A stretch of 64,000 bases of DNA from an uncultured archaeon (lineage in GTDB: Archaea; Aenigmatarchaeota; Aenigmatarchaeia; QMZP01; QMZT01), in NCBI GenBank assembly GCA_964441265.1, contig CAYYKJ010000003.1:23428-87427 (forward strand), given 5' to 3'. The notes under the pieces are model-generated. The model was not told the DNA's origin. It made no database searches and worked only from the letters and a program-made list of their open reading frames with translations. Below are positions 2,855 through 60,734 of the stretch, piece by piece (the stretch's first letter is position 1; every line of letters starts with the position of its first letter). The position numbers and the translations under genes were made by a program.

Positions 2855-3112
2855 ATTCGCCCCGCAAAGAAAATCCTATTTCTTCTTGAGTAATTTGTCA
2901 AGCTTCTTGTCTATCCGGTTCATCCTTTCCTTCATGTCATCCCACGCCTCCAGCATTATCCGTGGGGCGGCTTGGGCCGGAACCTCGCAGGGACGGGCTT
3001 CCTGTCCCTCAGAAAATGGACGATCTCCCTGTTTATCAGCCTGTAATATTTCTTCCCCTGCTTCCATTCGGATTCCACGAGGCCTATTTCCTGAAGGAGA
3101 TTCAGGTGAAAG

Positions 3113-3532
3113 TCAATCGTCTGCGGTCTCTTTCCCCGTTCTATCGTAGTATTGCAGATTTTTTATGACATTTTCGGCACAACCCCGTATGAGTTCCCTT
3201 GCTATTCTCAACCTCTTCCCGTGATCGGTGTAATGCCCCACTTGCTTTATCAAAAGATCCCCCGACAAAAGCTTTTCGCGGGGATAATAACTGCCTTCGT
3301 AATTTTCATACTTGCCAAAAAAATGTATGGGCACGCCATGCTTTGAGAGGTACGAAACGACACCAGAGGAAAAACTCAGTCGACCATGGGCATATATTGA
3401 ATATATCTTCTCTATGGGGAGGATTCTCCTTTCCATCTTCCCCTCTTCGTTGTTTCTGACAAAATAAACTGTGTTCTGCTTTCTTTTGAGTATGCCGTCC
3501 TTTGTTATGAAAAAATTGACCTTCATTTCCAT
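3113..3532 (-). pseudogene. cas1: cas1 N-terminal fragment, 139 aa, truncated before the catalytic domain
   Basis: YFVRNNEEGKMERRILPIEKIYSIYAHGRLSFSSGVVSYLSKHGVPIHFFGKYENYEGSYYP...LLIKQVGHYTDHGKRLRIARELIRGCAENVIKNL matches the Cas1 N-terminal beta-sandwich domain and the first helices. The ORF stops about 190 aa short of a full Cas1, and no cas2 follows. Confidence 0.7.
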
Positions 3533-3551
3533 ACCACCGATTATGTGACAA

Positions 3552-4952
3552 CTAAAGCTTATCCATAGCTATTATTTCTACCCCGAACTTCTCTCCGGCT
3601 TTCCCGGGCCCATCAAAACCAGAGCACACTATTATGAATTTCTCCGAGAAGTTTAAGCTGGCATTTATTTTTGATGATTTCTCCTTAAGGGATTTGGATA
3701 TCCTTTCAATGTCCCTGTCTTTGAGGCGACCAAGTTTGGCTTCGCCAATCAGAAGCTTCCTGCCTATCCTGTCTATGCCCAGTATGTCCACCTCAGACTT
3801 CCTGTCCCACCAGCGGCCGAATATGTAGTCCTTATATTTGTCCATATGAACAAGTTCAGATATTGCTACTTCTTCAAACGCATGCCCTGCGAATGAACCG
3901 AGTTCCATTAATATCTTATTATCCACAAGGTTTTCCTGCCGGCCCTGTTCGACATATTCCAGATTTTCAAAAACAAACCTGAACCAGAATCTGAAGAAGT
4001 TGTCCTTTATGACATATATGCCATTCCTCGAGCGGGAAGCGTTTTTTTCTGTTACCGGAACCCTTCTTTCAATAATGTGTAGGTTTGACAGCGTATCCAA
4101 ATATTTGTTGACAAAAGACTTCTCAAAGCCCGTGTCGTTAACTATCTGGCCGGGCCTTGTATTTCCCTTTGATATCGAGTATAATATGGAGAAATAGTTT
4201 TTTGGCTCTTTCAGTTCCTCTCTCAGGGTGAAGAGGACGTCCTGGAAAAGGAACCTGTTTTTCATCAGTACATTCCGAAGGATATTCTCCCTTATGCCTT
4301 TGTCGAAGTTAAACTCAAGCAGGTATGCCGGCATGCCGCCGAGCACGGCGTAATTCATCACCTTTTCCCTGAAGGGCATTCTTTCCGGGAAAAAGCGGCA
4401 CGCGTCCCTGAAATTAAGCGGCTCCAGCAGCATCTGCTCAGTTCTCCTGCCATATATGGGGCTTTTATGTCCGAGGAGCCTCTCCATCATCGACATTGAC
4501 GAGCCGCACAGCACGATAAATGCATTTTTTTCCGAAAGGTTATTATCCCAATGGTCCTGAAGTATGGAAGTCACCTTCTTCGAGGACTGTACCATGTAGG
4601 GAAATTCATCGAAAACAACCGGCATCCTGGGTTTTGACGCAATATAAGCGAAAAGTGCGTCCCAACTGGAGAAGGGGCTCAGCCTGAGCACGTCATCATT
4701 GAAAAACTCCGCCACCGAGCGACTGGCGCTCCTCAGTTGTTCCCTCTCTGATTCCTGCCTGGCAAGTATGTACAGCCCTTTATGTTTTTTGAGGAATTCC
4801 TTCAAGAGTTCTGTCTTCCCGACCCTTCTTCTCCCGTAAAGTATTATGAGCTTTGGGGCACCTTTTTCATAAAGTCCGTTCAAAAGCTTCAGTTCAGATA
4901 CCCTGTTTTTGAAATTTGCGCCCTTTGCTCTGTTGGATTTAGTATACTTCAT
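3552..4952 (-). CDS. AAA+ ATPase of the archaeal-ATPase type with a C-terminal DUF234-like PD-(D/E)xK nuclease-fold domain
   Basis: Walker A motif LILYGRRRVGKTELL. The C-terminus ...SEVDILGIDRIGRKLLIGEAKLG... shows a D...EAK nuclease-like motif. It lies 40 bp downstream of cas4 and 20 bp upstream of the cas1 fragment. Confidence 0.7.
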   Translation of the reverse strand: MKYTKSNRAKGANFKNRVSELKLLNGLYEKGAPKLIILYGRRRVGKTELLKEFLKKHKGLYILARQESEREQLRSASRSVAEFFNDDVLRLSPFSSWDALFAYIASKPRMPVVFDEFPYMVQSSKKVTSILQDHWDNNLSEKNAFIVLCGSSMSMMERLLGHKSPIYGRRTEQMLLEPLNFRDACRFFPERMPFREKVMNYAVLGGMPAYLLEFNFDKGIRENILRNVLMKNRFLFQDVLFTLREELKEPKNYFSILYSISKGNTRPGQIVNDTGFEKSFVNKYLDTLSNLHIIERRVPVTEKNASRSRNGIYVIKDNFFRFWFRFVFENLEYVEQGRQENLVDNKILMELGSFAGHAFEEVAISELVHMDKYKDYIFGRWWDRKSEVDILGIDRIGRKLLIGEAKLGRLKDRDIERISKSLKEKSSKINASLNFSEKFIIVCSGFDGPGKAGEKFGVEIIAMDKL

Positions 4953-4991
4953 AGTAGTATAATGTATAATATACTATTTAAAGGTTTTTCC

Positions 4992-5543
4992 TCACTTCAC
5001 CCAGCAAAATTCAAAATAGCTGCATTTTCTACACATTTTCCTCTTTTCTGGTTCCGGTGGCTTCTCCATTGAAACTATATCACTTATATTTCTCAGGATG
5101 TCTTTTATTCTAGTTTCATTGTCCTCGGTAAGAATGATGGATTTTGTCTTCCTTAATTTGGGGTAATCTATCACCCCCTCAGCATCTACGCCTTTCTGTT
5201 TGAGATAATAAAGGTAATACAGGAGCTGGCAGACGTGGGCGTCTTCCATCTTGTTTGACTTCTTGATGTCGTGGAGCAACAGCTTGCCGCCTCTTTTCAT
5301 GAAATCTATGGATATCCTGGAATCTATCATTATTTCTTTCTTGGCGCCGGCATAGCTTGCTTCATGAATCACCCTGCCCATGGCCACGGCATCGGATTCG
5401 CGCTCCTGCCTTATGAAATGCGAGAAATACCAGAGTTTGGTGGGGCATATCACGTAATAGTTTACCTGCGTCCCTGTGAAGACACATTGCTTCGAAATCA
5501 TACGAATGGCCTCAGAACTCAAGAATCTCATCAACAAATGCAC
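4992..5543 (-). CDS. cas4: Cas4 RecB-like nuclease, apparently intact
   Basis: N-terminal FTGTQVNYYVICPTKLW, a QLLYYLYYLKQKG (QxxxY) motif, an IDF...LLHDIKK (D...DxK) motif, and a C-terminal CRKCSYFEFC cysteine cluster. All four Fe-S cluster cysteines are present. Confidence 0.8.
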   Translation of the reverse strand: MHLLMRFLSSEAIRMISKQCVFTGTQVNYYVICPTKLWYFSHFIRQERESDAVAMGRVIHEASYAGAKKEIMIDSRISIDFMKRGGKLLLHDIKKSNKMEDAHVCQLLYYLYYLKQKGVDAEGVIDYPKLRKTKSIILTEDNETRIKDILRNISDIVSMEKPPEPEKRKMCRKCSYFEFCWVK

Positions 5544-6882
5544 AGAAGACCAATGCAGGAATCAGCATTATATTGATGTTCTTGTCTTTAACTATCCTGA
5601 AATCGCTCTTTGTTATTATGAATCCACTGCTGCATCCGATCTTCCTCATCTCTTCTTTTACTTTCTTGATGTCCTTTTTTGTTACCCTTTCCCTGTATTT
5701 GACCTCGATTAACGTCGTCTTTTCGCCTTTGACCACAAAATCTATCTCACCGTTGCTTCTGAGATACGTCATCCTCTTTCCATGCTTCGAACAACTGATG
5801 AAACAGTGAACTCCCACTATGTTTTCAATGACAAACCCTTCGTTGTCTTCCTTTATCTCATAGTCCCTGAGCAATGAGTTCCTTATGCCCTGGTCCACGC
5901 ACAGGAATTTCTTTTTGGATTTCAGCTGCTCCTTAACCGTTTTGGCAAGCTTCAGTATTTCGATTATGAGATAGGATGATTTCAAATACTCTATATAATT
6001 TGTGAGTATCTCATGCTTCAGCCTTGCCGCCTCGTTTATTTTTTCATAGCTTAATATCCTTGACTGGTTTGCAATGATGAAAACGAAAATCTGCTCCAGA
6101 ATCTTTGCATTCCTTATTCTGAAAGTAGTCGTTATGTCCTCGTATATCGCCTTGTTTGAAATTGAGTTTTTCAGTATTCTGAACCAGTCCCTGAAGTCTT
6201 TCACCTCAAAGAATTCGGGAAATCCTCCTGCAAGCATGTACTGCCTGAAATCCTTTTTGTACGCATCAAGGATTTTATCAACCGAAACGGCATCTGTTTT
6301 AAAATGAGTGACCTCCGTCCCCTTAAGCTCCATGAACTGCCTGAAGGACAAGGGCCATACCTCATGCAGAATGTATCTGCCCCTCAGGTACCTGTTGGCT
6401 TCTTTTTGCAGGGTCAGGCTTGACGAACCCGAAATGAATATCTTTATGTCTTTGTGTCTGTCGTATGCAACCTTAAGCCATTTGTACCACTCACTAACAA
6501 AATGTACCTCATCGAAAAACACGTATTTTTTACCTTCTTCCGCTATATTTTCCAGCCAGTAATCAAAAATGTCCTTGATAAGGTTATCAGAATATATCTT
6601 AAGATATGGATCCTCAAGAGAATAGTACAGAATGTTCCTGGGCTTTGCTCCCTGCTTGATGAGCCTCGCCATGATGTGCTTCATCAGGACGCTCTTGCCA
6701 ACCCTCCTCGGCCCGGTAATTATGGATATCTTTTTCAGCCGGGCGTCGCTGTGAATCTCCTCGACCTCGTCCCTCTCCAGGGGGTAATCCTCCTTCTCCT
6801 CAACCTTCCCGGTAAGCCAGAACCTGTTCGCCTTCTCAAGCTCCTGCCTGAAGACCCCCCTGTCCTTTATCATATTAACCAT
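5512..6882 (-). CDS. AAA ATPase of the AAA_14/DUF4143 type with a C-terminal PD-(D/E)xK-like domain
   Basis: Walker A motif ISIITGPRRVGKSVLMKHI, Walker B motif VFFDEVH, and a C-terminal GEIDFVVKGEKTTLIEVKYRE nuclease-like motif. Its 3' end overlaps the cas4 start, which suggests an operon. Confidence 0.7.
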   Translation of the reverse strand: MVNMIKDRGVFRQELEKANRFWLTGKVEEKEDYPLERDEVEEIHSDARLKKISIITGPRRVGKSVLMKHIMARLIKQGAKPRNILYYSLEDPYLKIYSDNLIKDIFDYWLENIAEEGKKYVFFDEVHFVSEWYKWLKVAYDRHKDIKIFISGSSSLTLQKEANRYLRGRYILHEVWPLSFRQFMELKGTEVTHFKTDAVSVDKILDAYKKDFRQYMLAGGFPEFFEVKDFRDWFRILKNSISNKAIYEDITTTFRIRNAKILEQIFVFIIANQSRILSYEKINEAARLKHEILTNYIEYLKSSYLIIEILKLAKTVKEQLKSKKKFLCVDQGIRNSLLRDYEIKEDNEGFVIENIVGVHCFISCSKHGKRMTYLRSNGEIDFVVKGEKTTLIEVKYRERVTKKDIKKVKEEMRKIGCSSGFIITKSDFRIVKDKNINIMLIPALVFCAFVDEILEF

Positions 6883-6984
6883 TATAGTGGAACATATTTA
6901 TATATTTTTATGCCAGTATAGTGGGAGAAAAGAAAAAGCAACGTCGAGCTCAAGACTTATAACTTTTGGTGATTTTTTAAGAAA

Positions 6985-7066
6985 GCCTGACCGGGCATAC
7001 AATGTAATGATTTACATGGGTTCCTGTGAAGAGATATTCCTTCGCCAGTAGGTCTTGCATAATACC
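6985..7066 (-). pseudogene. cas4: Remnant of a second cas4 gene (N-terminal 27 codons, then a stop)
   Basis: The minus strand translates to MQDLLAKEYLFTGTHVNHYIVCPVRLS*. Compare the intact Cas4 KQCVFTGTQVNYYVICPTKLW. DNA identity with the 5457..5489 region is about 75%. Confidence 0.5.
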
Positions 7067-7288
7067 TCACACAAGCAATAAAAATAACCAGGCAGGAACA
7101 AACATAATCCTTTTTTGTTTAACTCTTTTTTCTTCCAACCTTTCCCGCGTTCATAACGTATTTTATTTGTATTATGGCACAAGTAACCTTTAAGTCTACT
7201 TGTAGAATCATATAAGTAAATTTTGGCGAGTTTTTGGCACGGCTGTTAGGAAAGCGGGTTTAAGACGGGATCTGATTCGGGTTTTGGG

Positions 7289-8506
7289 TTAGATGATGTT
7301 ATTTCCAAATTGATTTATTTCCTCTTTGTCTATATCTTTTATAACATCGATTCCCTTTTCTCTTATACTGTCCATGGTTTCTTTTTTCTGCTTTTTCATG
7401 ACAAAAAATCCTTTGAATTCATGGGAGACTAATCCCCACTTAAGCCAGGGCTTTGCCAGATAAAATTCTGGCAAATTCACTGAATATTCATACAGTATTT
7501 TCTTTAATTTCCATCTTAGGTTTTTTCTTTCTTGATTATTCTCACTTATTTCGATTCCATCTTTTTGTAACTTGTCTAGTATCTCATTCCAAGAAATATT
7601 ATTATTTTCTCTATCATTAATTATTTTAGCAAATGTTTTTCTCAATTTCACATCATCCTCCTCTTTTTCATTTTCTTCTTGCTCTTCAATCTCCATCAAT
7701 TGAGGAATAACCATTTGCATTCCACCAAGTCTTCTGAAAATTCTTTGGGCGTCACTTCTTTTTTCAGCTGTAAGGTACTTTAAATAATCTAGATTTTTCT
7801 TTATCTCTAGTATGTATTTTGAAGTTAGCGAATTTCCATCCTCCTCCTTTCCAAAAACATCATCGATCAGCTCTCTTTCTTTTTCATAATTGAGCGGTTG
7901 ATTCTCAAATTTCTTTAGAATTTTCACAGTGGATTCCATTACTTCTTCATCATAAATTGCCTTGCTTCCCCTGTCTTTACTGAAATTTGAAAAGACAATT
8001 ATGTTTGGTTCAACGACTTTATTTTCCTTATTCCTATTTATTCTCCCCCATCTCTGAATTTGGCTATCAATAGGGGAAACCTCCGTGATCATAAAATCGA
8101 AGTCTACATCTACAGATGCCTCAACCATCTGAGTAGATACCAAGATTACTTTTTTGCCTTCATCCAACCTCTCTTTAATTTTCTCTATTCTTTTACCTTT
8201 TACTTTCTCTGTTAGCCGTGAATTTAGCAAGAAAAAGCCGTCTTCTTCATTTTTTCCAAATTTTTCATAAAGTTCTATTGATTTTTTTACATTGTTTACT
8301 ATTATCATGGTACTGACTTCGTTTTCTTTAAAATCCTTCACCGGGAATATATTGGAAAAGCAGAAGTATTTGTATGTCCTTTTGTCGTGAAGCTCATCAT
8401 AGGCACTGCCCTTCAATAATTTATAGAAAAAACCCTGCAATTTTTTATAATACAACATATCATAAACACAATCCTTCTCAACATTGAAATTCAGGAGAAT
8501 TCTCAT
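7289..8506 (-). pseudogene. cas3: In-frame fusion of a Cas6 N-terminus (about 58 aa) to the Cas3 helicase C-terminal half. This is a remnant of a type I-B-like cas operon.
   Basis: The N-terminus MRILLNFNVEKDCVYDMLYYKKLQGFFYKLLKGSAYDELHDKRTYKYFCFSNIFP looks like a Cas6 N-terminus with the F-x-F-S motif. It is followed by MIIVNNVKKSIELYEKFG...FFLLNSRLTEKVKGKRIEKIKERLDEGKKVILVSTQMVEASVDVDFDFMITEVSPIDSQIQRWGRINR, which matches Cas3 helicase motifs IV to VI plus the Cas3 C-terminal domain. The HD domain, Walker A and DEAH motifs are absent. Confidence 0.65.
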
Positions 8507-8619
8507 TCAATCGCTTGATTTTTGGATTATTATTATAAAAGTTTTCTATGGGAAAAACAGAAATATTACGGCGCCGTATTATTTCGAAATACAGCCCGCA
8601 AATAAACGTTAGTTGCCGC

Positions 8620-9918
8620 CTATCCCTTCAGCCTCTTCATCAGTTCCCCGGCCGGGAGCATCTCTTCCCTTCCCGACTTCATGTCCCTGAGCTTGACCTT
8701 GTTTTTCTTCAGCTCCTTCTCCCCCAGAAGGATCACGTAAGGGATTCCCAGGGAATTGGCGTAGCTCAGGTTCTTTGATATTCCCCTTCCCATCAGGTCG
8801 ATTTCGCAGGGTATGCCGCCCTCCCTGATCTTCCCGGCAACCGGAAGGGCCTTTTCGAACGTGTCACCGATAGGGATCACCAGAACCCTGCTGACGGTCC
8901 TACCTTCCCCGGCCCTCTTCTCCAGCTTGAGGGCCTCGAATATGGGCTCTATCCCGAAGGAGACGCCCGTTGCCGGGAAATCTCCCTTACCCAGGTACAT
9001 TCCGATCATCCTGTCGTATCTCCCCCCGCCGGCGAGGGACGAGGTGATCCTGGACTTCCTGAGATAGACCTCGAAGACGGGCCCCGTATAATACTCCAGC
9101 CCTCTCGCCAGGGAGACGTCCAGCTCTATGTTATCTATCCCCATTTTCTTACAGTATCCGAGCAGCTCCTCCAGCTCCCCGATGCCCTCCTTTCCTTCAC
9201 CGCTTTTGACGTATTTCTTTATCTTTGAAAGTATCTCGGAGTTCTTCCCTTTGATCTTCAGAATTTCGAAGACCTTGTCCACCTCTTCCTTCTCAAACCC
9301 CAGCGTCAGTAGCTCCTCGCGTACCCCCATCGTGCCTATCTTCGATAGCTTGTCCACGGCCAGTATGGCCTTCATCTTGTACTCCCCGAACCCGGCGTAA
9401 TCCATTATGCCGTTCAATAACTTTCGGGAGTTGACCTTTATCACGAAATCGAACCCAAGCTCCCTGAATGCAGTATCTACCACCGAAAGTATCTCGGCAT
9501 CCGCGACCATGGACCTTACCCCGACCACGTCGACGTCGCACTGGAGAAACTCCCTGTATCTGCCCAGCTTTATGGGCCCGTCCCTCCAGACCGGCTGTAT
9601 CTGGTAGCGGCGGAATGGCTTGGGGAGGTTGGGATTCATGCCCACCACCTTGCACATGGGGACGGTGAGATCATAACGGAGCCCGAGCTTCCTGTCGCCC
9701 TGGTCACTGAAGCTGAATATCTCCTTCATTATCTCCTCCCCGCCGGCGAACTTGGCCGCCAGAACGTCCATGCGCTCGACCGCAGGGGTCTCCAGCGGGG
9801 AATAGCCGTAGGTCTCGAATATCCTCCGGAGCGTATCCACTATCATTTTCCTGGGGATCTCCTCCTCCGGGAGGAAGTCCCTCACTCCCTTCGCGTTCAT
9901 CAGCCTGACATCTGCCAT
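8620..9918 (-). CDS. hisS: Histidyl-tRNA synthetase
   Basis: 432 aa class II aaRS with HisRS-type motifs (FRRYQIQPVWR, GGGRYD) and a C-terminal anticodon-binding domain. Confidence 0.85.
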   Translation of the reverse strand: MADVRLMNAKGVRDFLPEEEIPRKMIVDTLRRIFETYGYSPLETPAVERMDVLAAKFAGGEEIMKEIFSFSDQGDRKLGLRYDLTVPMCKVVGMNPNLPKPFRRYQIQPVWRDGPIKLGRYREFLQCDVDVVGVRSMVADAEILSVVDTAFRELGFDFVIKVNSRKLLNGIMDYAGFGEYKMKAILAVDKLSKIGTMGVREELLTLGFEKEEVDKVFEILKIKGKNSEILSKIKKYVKSGEGKEGIGELEELLGYCKKMGIDNIELDVSLARGLEYYTGPVFEVYLRKSRITSSLAGGGRYDRMIGMYLGKGDFPATGVSFGIEPIFEALKLEKRAGEGRTVSRVLVIPIGDTFEKALPVAGKIREGGIPCEIDLMGRGISKNLSYANSLGIPYVILLGEKELKKNKVKLRDMKSGREEMLPAGELMKRLKG

Positions 9919-56828: not shown

Positions 56829-56940
56829 TCCCTTTTGGTCCCACGCTTTTGTCGGGAAAAGGAAAAGCGTGGAGTGGAAGCGGTCAGCTCCCTTTTGGTC
56901 CCACGCTTTTGTCGGGAAAAGGAAAAGCGTGGAGTGGAAG
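56829..56940. repeat. Two identical tandem copies of a 52-bp unit (period 60 bp, 8-bp spacer). Each unit contains a 10-bp-stem hairpin.
   Basis: tcccttttggtcccacgcttttgtcgggaaaaggaaaagcgtggagtggaag occurs twice. The internal palindrome is CCACGCTTTT/AAAAGCGTGG. Confidence 0.6.
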
Positions 56941-57183: not shown

Positions 57184-57255
57184 CGCCTCGGCCGGGATTT
57201 GAACCCGGGTCCTGGGAGTGACAGTCCCAGATGATAACCACTACACTACCGAAGC
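57184..57255 (-). tRNA. tRNA-Asp(GUC), 72 nt, no encoded CCA
   Basis: GCTTCGG-TA-GTGT-AGTGGTTA-TCAT-C-TGGGA-CTGTCAC-TCCCA-GGAC-CCGGG-TTCAAAT-CCCGG-CCGAGGC-G. Only 2 nt separate it from the downstream Trp-like gene. The D-stem has one mismatch. Confidence 0.75.
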
Positions 57256-60544: not shown

Positions 60545-60712
60545 GGGAGCAGCGTTCTGGATTTCCCACCTATCACCGCCGAAAGAAACAGGCACGCCTG
60601 TTTCCTGCGAAACCCGAAACCTCCGGTTTCGGCAGTAATTCCCAGACCGCGGGGAGTCTTAACTTCTGTGTTCGAAATGGGAACAGGTGATCCCTCCCGC
60701 TTTGGCCGCTCG
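60545..60712 (-). rRNA. rrf: 5S rRNA, orphan gene, with an extended helix IV region (about 165-170 nt)
   Basis: Minus strand GAGCGGCCAAAGCGGGAGGGAUCACCUGUUCCCAUUUCGAACACAGAAGUUAAGACUCCCCGCGGUCUGGGAAUUACUGCC... aligns to archaeal 5S helices I-III, loop C and loop E (compare GCGGCCAUAGCGG...CCCAUCCCGAACACGGAAGAUAAGCC...AGUACUG). Helix V closes as GCGGUCUGG/CCAGAACGC and helix I as GAGCGGC/GCUGCUC. About 45 extra nt lie between the loop E strands. Confidence 0.6.
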
Positions 60713-60734
60713 ATATTCTAATTGCCGGGCAAGG

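Follow-up and report, generated by a model that had tools for sequence, protein, structure and literature searches.

The window, which denotes the whole stretch of 64,000 nucleotides analysed here, contained a decayed cas island located between hisS and a mechanosensitive (MS)-channel gene in the genome of a small symbiotic archaeon of the Aenigmatarchaeota (Table 1). The GC content of the island was 32-45%, compared with 50-56% in hisS and the MS-channel gene on either side of it. The neighbouring HisRS was 81% identical to Aenigmatarchaeota proteins of the sister genomes L069 and L071. Both sister genomes had the same flanks as the window, with racemase and hisS genes on one side and genes for the MS channel, an 1127-aa protein and HerA on the other. 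Between hisS and the channel gene, they held two small ORFs and an HTH_20 gene and no cas genes. Blastn synteny with L069 stopped at window position 8657 and resumed at position 3133, corresponding to position 4058 in L069. The only intact genes of the island were one cas4 and two single-gene ATPase-nuclease defence candidates. Upstream of these in the direction of transcription, a single gene of 405 codons combined the N-terminal quarter of cas6 with the rear half of cas3 in one reading frame. Its 405-aa translation was identical to the one quoted in the original prediction for this locus.

Table 1. Coordinates of the cas-derived, host-derived and associated features in the window.
Feature	Position	Strand	Details and evidence
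Decayed cas island, about 5.5 kb	3134..8619		Synteny with sister genomes, GC content
TATA-box-like element TTTATAATAATAA	8527..8539	minus	Sequence reading; centre about 27 nt before the ATG
Chimeric cas6'-'cas3 ORF	7289..8506	minus	405 codons plus stop, ATG start
Cas6-derived part, codons 1-66	8309..8506	minus	Cas6 alignment; Cas6b profiles from position 1
Junction zone, codons 67-69 (M-I-I; atg ata ata)	8300..8308	minus	HMM alignments, DNA sequence
Cas3-derived part, codons 70-405, RecA2 lobe (motifs IV-VI) and C-terminal domain	7289..8299	minus	Profiles
cas4 5' stub, 27 codons (MQDLLAKEYLFTGTHVNHYIVCPVRLS) plus stop	6977..7060	minus	ATG at 7060
Intact AAA_14 + DUF4143 ATPase-nuclease gene (PDC-S01)	5512..6882	minus	Pfam E = 3e-35 and 5e-23; PADLOC
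Intact cas4, probable ATG start at 5501	4992..5543	minus	PF01930 E = 8e-60, positions 1-159 of 160
Intact ATPase_2 + DUF234 gene (PDC-S27)	3552..4952	minus	Pfam; PADLOC E = 8.6e-44
cas1 5' fragment with about 133 codons of Cas1, followed by about 6 foreign codons plus stop	3113..3532	minus	TIGR03641
Host HTH_20 (ArsR-type) remnant	2855..3133	minus	Synteny; comparison with HTH_20 proteins of L069 and L071

The larger part of the chimeric ORF was derived from Cas3. Curated profiles assigned approximately aa 61-405 to this protein: TIGR01587 cas3_core matched with positions 220-357 of 358 (E = 6e-33), PF22590 Cas3-like_C_2 with E = 7e-26 and the PADLOC Cas3b profile with E = 1e-45. PF00271 Helicase_C was matched as well. 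A custom Cas3 profile matched with positions 533-853 of 857, and the motifs TQxVEASVD and SQIQRWGR were conserved in the alignment with Cas3. Both the RecA2 lobe and the Cas3 C-terminal domain were present. Nothing in the ORF matched the HD domain or the RecA1 lobe with motifs I-III. Positions 1-219 of TIGR01587 and 1-532 of the custom Cas3 HMM found no match in it, and PF00270 and PF18019, both present in the Cas3 of the intact relative L008, were absent from the ORF. The Cas3-derived part retained 52 of the 56 alignment columns (93%) that were at least 90% conserved in relatives. Its conservation score was the sixth-lowest of 42 sequences and slightly below that of intact relatives. Four conserved positions were changed, including a histidine to asparagine exchange in the LLHSR motif. 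AlphaFold2, run with an alignment of 33 sequences, modelled a RecA2 lobe and a C-terminal domain from about aa 61 on, in a mediocre model with a mean pLDDT of 69. A Foldseek search of this model against the PDB gave no hit at E ≤ 0.001. The Cas3 structures 4qqy and 8wtk appeared in that search at E of about 0.1 only.

The first 66 residues were assigned to Cas6. A search with these residues in a database of 5.8 billion protein clusters returned one protein named Cas6 (E = 1.3e-16, 58% identity). The whole ORF retrieved 14 PF01881 Cas6 proteins, which aligned over its first 13-32%; the closest of them were 55-58% identical to the N-terminus. The alignment with the Cas6 homologues began at Met1. 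PADLOC Cas6b profiles matched from profile position 1, over aa 1-113 with E = 1.8e-20 and over aa 1-74 with E = 4.5e-16, and a custom profile built from the 14 Cas6 homologues matched with E = 7e-32. The isolated 66 aa had no match in Pfam and a weak match to the NCBIfam model cas_cas6 (E = 0.012), so that the assignment rests on the homologue searches, PADLOC and the custom profiles. The Cas6 piece corresponded to the start of the N-terminal RRM and contained the invariant residues Y28, H40 and K46 and the FCFSNIFP motif. The complete double-RRM fold of Cas6 was absent, with about 66-69 of about 250 residues left. Homology thus started at the native N-terminus of the family, whereas the C-terminal glycine-rich loop (GxGxxxxxGFG) was lacking: the block GERNSLGFGF, present in all Cas6 homologues of the alignment, was missing from the ORF, and Pfam Cas_Cas6_C did not match it. 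In the AlphaFold2 model, aa 1-32 and 42-57 had pLDDT values below 50, and the low confidence of aa 1-57 was the only feature of the model that was relied on. As a fragment of a fold, the Cas6 piece is predicted to be disordered.

These results agree with the original prediction of a Cas6-like N-terminus that runs into Cas3 motifs IV-VI and the Cas3 C-terminal domain, as seen in the Cas6b and Cas3b profiles. The possibility raised there that the N-terminal 60 aa belong to Cas3 itself was not borne out, since the first 66 or so residues matched Cas6b profiles and Cas6 proteins from residue 1. The transition from one family to the other, previously placed after about 58 aa, had to be moved to aa 67-69, as Cas6 homology reached aa 66-69. 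The Cas6 alignment was unbroken to about aa 69, with the consensus ..kkgdlrkLIIssPd opposite ..KENEVSTMIIVNNV in the ORF. Most Cas6 alignments of an exhaustive HMMER search ended at query residues 69-72. In the custom HMM, the Cas3 alignment began with ..niLIIvNnVkkAi. The residues M-I-I are compatible with the consensus of Cas6 (..k-L-I-I-s-s-P-d) as well as with that of Cas3 (..n-i-L-I-I-v-N-n-V), and the exact breakpoint is ambiguous because L-I-I occurs in both parent families. The closest relatives of the ORF were only about 46-58% identical to it, with best identities of 49% in genome contigs and 50% in metagenome contigs, and a search of viral contigs for a closer intact relative found nothing. 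At these identities, the breakpoint could be placed at profile resolution and not at the nucleotide level. Column-by-column BLOSUM scoring after mafft --add was tried for the same region and rejected owing to short chance similarities; mafft aligned aa 48-66 with YPLS.IVIDEIQA in the motif II region of Cas3, and aa 70-83 with the Cas6 segment NL.KKY.EFY.

The two-part architecture was searched in two protein libraries. The whole ORF was compared with the 5.8 billion protein clusters, where no protein besides the window's own entry (P0002) combined Cas6 with Cas3. Nor did a second protein of this architecture emerge when 1.84 billion representatives were scanned exhaustively with HMMER, using a query of 110 aa across the junction. 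The other matches of the scan aligned through their own N-termini, and nearly all were of Cas6 length or shorter fragments. One of the proteins in the scan, P0174, consisted of a Cas6 N-terminal fragment and unrelated sequence. In the two libraries, the chimera is the only protein with a Cas6-Cas3 architecture. Full-length homologues of exactly this build, which according to the original prediction would speak for a genuine domain arrangement, were thus not found in either library, and the recurrence in independent genomes by which a conserved Cas fusion is recognised was likewise missing from both.

The join could in principle be an artefact, formed when an assembler connects two parts of an intact operon or collapses a contig. 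The genome is metagenome-assembled, and the two assemblies that carry the locus may derive from the same reads. However, the second assembly, a Logan contig of run SRR7048220, was built independently, and the proteins of the two assemblies were identical across the whole island. The sequence common to both parents at the join is at most about 9 nt and so much shorter than the k-mers used by assemblers. Moreover, the join keeps the reading frame and lies within a continuous segment of low GC content, and the other, independent scars in the island indicate real decay. An assembly artefact is therefore most improbable.

The remaining genes of the island were in different states of preservation. 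The cas4 stub occupied the slot that cas4 takes after cas3 in intact loci. In blastx comparisons, it was 48-58% identical to Cas4 of L006, L037 and L008 (E of 5e-5 to 2e-3; tblastn E = 3e-5), and it shared 79% nucleotide identity over 52 nt with the 5' end of the intact cas4. Among the loci listed in a motif scan, the window alone held two Cas4 N-termini. The intact cas4 matched the PADLOC Cas4b profile with E = 5e-60 and was flanked by PDC-S01, which matched its PADLOC profile with E = 1.8e-75, and PDC-S27; both are PADLOC candidate defence genes. About 133 of about 330 codons were left of cas1. The fragment matched positions 2-127 of 324 of the Cas1b profile TIGR03641 (E = 8e-43) and was 73% identical to residues 9-143 of the L008 Cas1. 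At approximately codon 133, it was joined out of frame to about codon 42 of the host HTH_20 gene, which had lost its first 41 or so codons, contained a frameshift and formed the right-hand deletion junction with cas1. This junction with a host gene implies that at least one deletion took place in this genome lineage. Together with the chimera junction and the cas4 stub, the island held at least three scars.

No remnant of cas8b, cas7, cas5 or cas2 was detected when the L008 proteins were searched against the whole window with tblastn; nothing was found at E < 0.5. Tandem Repeats Finder (TRF) and a repeat search did not find a CRISPR array in the window, and the conserved repeat of the relatives (GTTAAAAT...ATTGAAAN) had no copy there. 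The window thus lacked all three marks of a functional type I-B system, namely the Cascade genes, a complete adaptation module and a CRISPR array. In the adaptation module, cas4 was intact, cas1 was incomplete and cas2 was absent. Insertion sequences or att-like repeats were not found at the island ends, where the only repeats were those of the cas4 stub with cas4 and small palindromes.

Intact counterparts were identified by scanning 185,579 species genomes, which yielded 56 related loci in which genes were mapped with tblastn. Co-oriented cas6, a stretch of approximately 5-6 kb, cas3, cas4 and cas1 were present in six of these loci (L007, L008, L010, L019, L022 and L038). In L030, cas6 was located upstream of cas3-cas4 in the same orientation and the contig ended past cas4. 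The complete order was read from L008, a locus of an uncultured archaeon: Cas6, a Cas8b-like protein of 570 aa, an ORF of 125 aa, Cas7, Cas5b, Cas3, Cas4, Cas1b and Cas2. Its Cas7 belonged to Cst2/DevR of type I-B and its Cas3 comprised 944 aa with HD and helicase domains. L006, from an Aenigmatarchaeota MAG, had the same layout as L008, followed by a CRISPR array. The postulated parental order cas6-cas8b-cas7-cas5-cas3-cas4-cas1-cas2 was therefore seen on one strand in intact relatives, and the N-terminal HD domain on their Cas3 supports the loss of HD and RecA1 from the chimera. The best relatives of both halves of the ORF occurred within the same intact loci, which points to one operon type as their origin. 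The distance between the two breakpoints was 5.8-7.1 kb in the intact loci and 8.5 kb in L019, which had an extra gene after cas6.

With canonical type I-B loci such as L008 and L006, the window shares the surviving order cas6'-'cas3-cas4-cas1', and its cas pieces matched best the I-B profiles Cas6b, Cas3b, Cas4b and Cas1b/TIGR03641. It differs from them in the absence of cas8b, cas7, cas5, cas2 and the array, in the fusion of Cas6 and Cas3 fragments, in the truncation of cas1 and in the extra cas4 stub.

Taken together, the ORF is very probably a non-functional chimeric pseudogene, a scar that records the loss of roughly 6 kb from a type I-B cas operon. Through this deletion, the sequence coding for the first beta-strand of the RecA2 lobe of Cas3 would have become attached to about codon 66-69 of cas6, the reading frame being preserved by a 1-in-3 chance, leaving the chimera behind. 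A microhomology of a few bases may have mediated the event, which is plausible from the L-I-I common to both parents. The studied model of type I-B systems is Haloferax volcanii. In a study on Haloferax type I-B self-targeting (PMC7521656), deletions by microhomology-mediated end joining are documented. The deletions in these survivors of self-targeting resemble the present case in the very short common sequence at the deletion junction in an archaeal type I-B context. They were experimental and affected the targeted gene, whereas the mechanism suggested here derives from an ambiguity of three codons in protein profiles. The original prediction held that one in-frame deletion had removed the rest of cas6, cas8, cas7, cas5 and the HD and RecA1 half of cas3. 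The gene content of this deletion is supported by the intact loci; a single event is the parsimonious reading for the ORF and is not proven. The further proposal that the same deletion explains why cas4 and the cas1 fragment lie just downstream gave an incomplete account, as the cas4 that follows cas3 is the stub of 27 codons. An inserted ATPase gene separates this stub from the intact cas4 and the cas1 fragment, whose segment has a higher GC content.

The structure of the whole island could also have been produced by several deletions, or by mosaic formation through recombination between two type I-B loci. One source would have contributed cas6...cas3 and the cas4 stub and the other PDC-S01-cas4-PDC-S27-cas1; the deletion between cas6 and cas3 may then even have predated the arrival of the island and have taken place in a donor genome. 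In line with such a history, a second, complete cas4 follows the stub, the sister genomes lack the island, and relatives with cas3-AAA14-cas4-cas1 (L016 and L034) and cas4-ATPase2-cas1 (L044) exist. A GC step also separates the chimera, with 32% GC and a GC3 of 0.31 in the Cas3-derived part, from PDC-S01, cas4, PDC-S27 and cas1', with 42-45% GC and a GC3 of 0.50-0.58. Yet part of this step may be normal, since intact L008 shows a smaller one in the same direction, with a GC3 of 0.46-0.55 in cas6 and the adaptation genes and 0.39-0.41 in cas8-cas3. Only a single junction is visible inside the ORF, and the cas1/host-HTH junction records at least one deletion within this genome. A mosaic or multi-event origin is thus possible but rather unlikely, and it would alter the history of the locus and not the identity of the ORF.

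The TATA-like element TTTATAATAATAA is probably the surviving cas6 promoter. With this element and the cas6 start codon kept, the ORF may still be transcribed and translated. Cas6 without most of the N-terminal RRM, the whole C-terminal RRM and the G-rich loop does not cut pre-crRNA. Likewise, Cas3 without Walker A/B, DExD and HD motifs does not hydrolyse ATP and does not unwind or nick DNA. From these established domain requirements, the chimera has presumably lost both functions; a product composed of half a helicase and roughly one quarter of the Cas6 fold with its two RRMs could not be expected to work. The partners that it would need, the Cascade genes, cas2, a complete cas1 and a CRISPR repeat, are also gone from the window.

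The frame of 405 codons remained open in DNA of 32% GC, in which the other two frames contained 43-44 stops. If the ORF evolved neutrally, the open frame corresponds to a post-deletion divergence of at most about 0.04 substitutions per site. Either the deletion was therefore recent or some constraint acts on the ORF. The conservation of the Cas3 part and the open frame fit a recent deletion with relaxation just beginning, and weak constraint would be compatible with them too. An alternative reading is that selection maintains the chimera as a genuine protein. As a fragment made of the Cas3 RecA2 lobe and C-terminal domain, it could for instance serve as a decoy for, or a regulator of, a type I-B Cascade. 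This Cascade could be encoded at another site in the archaeon's own genome or, for this DPANN symbiont, belong to its archaeal host. The open frame, the preserved TATA box and the retention of 93% of the conserved Cas3 positions would suit such a role. It is nevertheless extremely unlikely: the protein was a singleton among the 5.8 billion clusters and the 1.84 billion representatives, its Cas6 piece is a fold fragment predicted to be disordered, the break cuts the helicase core midway, changes had already occurred at four conserved positions including the histidine of LLHSR, and neighbouring genes carry further scars.

Homologues of PDC-S01 and PDC-S27 were found in the same slots, between cas3 and cas4 and between cas4 and cas1, respectively, in intact type I-B loci of unrelated phyla. 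The ATPase-nucleases could therefore be real accessories of the I-B adaptation module. It is very unlikely that cas4, PDC-S01 and PDC-S27 now form a selected, CRISPR-independent defence or repair module or that the chimera is expressed as a Cas3 C-terminal-domain decoy, with the decoy being the more remote of the two. If the module existed, the window would show DPANN archaea stripping a CRISPR locus down to single-gene defences.

Natural and conserved fusions of Cas proteins include Cas2-Cas3 of type I-F and Cas4-Cas1 of types I-G and V-B. The chimera resembles them in that two cas products are combined in one polypeptide. The natural fusions consist of complete domains and recur across many genomes, whereas both folds in the chimera are incomplete and no second protein of its kind was found in the two libraries. 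The chimera has arisen through ordinary decay of an immune locus and represents neither a new mechanism nor a new protein family. Read as a deletion scar, it illustrates the loss of a class 1 CRISPR-Cas operon, with the first and fifth genes fused by an internal deletion of about 6 kb. It is also a warning for annotation, as domain scans call the ORF Cas3 and would score the locus as a partial type I-B system.

To our knowledge, intermediate states in which the deletion junctions are preserved have rarely been described. CRISPR-Cas systems are under-represented in DPANN archaea, and single-gene candidate systems including PDCs are enriched (PMC12988326). DPANN genomes mostly lack CRISPR-Cas yet have kept Cas4 genes (PMC5704561). 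The island would represent a concrete intermediate for this reported scarcity. [quoted passage not shown] In contrast to other degenerate or partial CRISPR-cas loci, the window keeps the deletion junctions themselves in the form of an in-frame fusion, a gene stub and a junction with a host gene.

Base composition changed stepwise within the decayed cas island. The cas6'-'cas3 chimera (window 7289-8506) had 32% GC and a GC3 of 0.31-0.47, versus 42-45% GC and a GC3 of 0.50-0.58 for the genes downstream of it (window 3113-6882). The flanking hisS and MS-channel genes held 50-56% GC with a GC3 of 0.71-0.78. A palindrome, reading GAAATATTACGGCGCCGTAATATTTC on the gene strand, was located directly 3' of the hisS stop codon and upstream of the TATA-like box of the chimera. 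A T-run follows it, and it is probably the hisS terminator.

Features in and around the cas island, in distal parts of the window and in intact type I-B relatives
Feature	Position	Strand	Remarks
HTH_20 (ArsR-like) host gene remnant	window 2855-3133	-	cut at codon ~42
ATPase_2/DUF234 gene (PDC-S27)	window 3552-4952	-	slot cas4/cas1
AAA_14/DUF4143 gene (PDC-S01)	window 5512-6882	-	slot cas3/cas4
cas4 5' stub	window 6977-7060	-	27 codons, own ATG
Palindrome	window 8560-8585		26 nt, T-run after it
Direct duplication	window 56829-56940		52 nt, perfect, 60-nt spacing
tRNA gene	window 57184-57255	-	
5S rRNA gene	window 60602-60713	-	
Small ORF between cas8b and cas7	L008 6125-6502; L007 5981-6337; L006 2157-2522		118-125 aa

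The cas4 5' stub separated the chimera from the gene that follows it. Across 52 nt, it matched the intact cas4 at its 5' end (window 5443-5494) with 79% nucleotide identity. It may have originated from a second truncation or from recombination between two loci. At the cas1 end of the island, the truncation point of the HTH_20 gene was its junction with cas1, and the remnant also contained a frameshift. The gene was intact in both sister genomes without the island (L069 and L071). In the distal part of the window, about 250 nt separated the direct duplication from the tRNA gene, with the 5S rRNA gene located farther along.

The metagenomic protein P0174 (399 aa) comprised a Cas6 N-terminal portion of about 150 aa fused to unrelated sequence. 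Truncated chimeras of the same Cas6 family therefore exist outside the window; none of those found was fused to Cas3. The closest Cas6, P0019, was encoded in locus L003 (2843-9509) of Aenigmatarchaeota GCA_044343155.1, which is arranged differently. There, cas6 on the forward strand was followed on the opposite strand by cas5, cas7, a 98-aa ORF and a 417-aa ORF, and then by a 712-aa Cas3 that was no more than distantly related to the Cas3 part in the window. The same MAG held a second, canonical type I-B locus, L006.

The small ORF was conserved among the intact relatives L008, L007 and L006 and had no match in Pfam or NCBIfam. It may represent a separately encoded Cas11-like small subunit. 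Homologues of the two ATPase-nuclease genes, with 25-32% identity, occupied the same cas3/cas4 and cas4/cas1 slots in intact type I-B loci of Aquificota, Thermoplasmatales, Hadarchaeota and Micrarchaeota (L016, L034, L046, L019 and L044/L045). Such genes may be guests that recur in type I-B adaptation modules, or they may be accessory to these modules.
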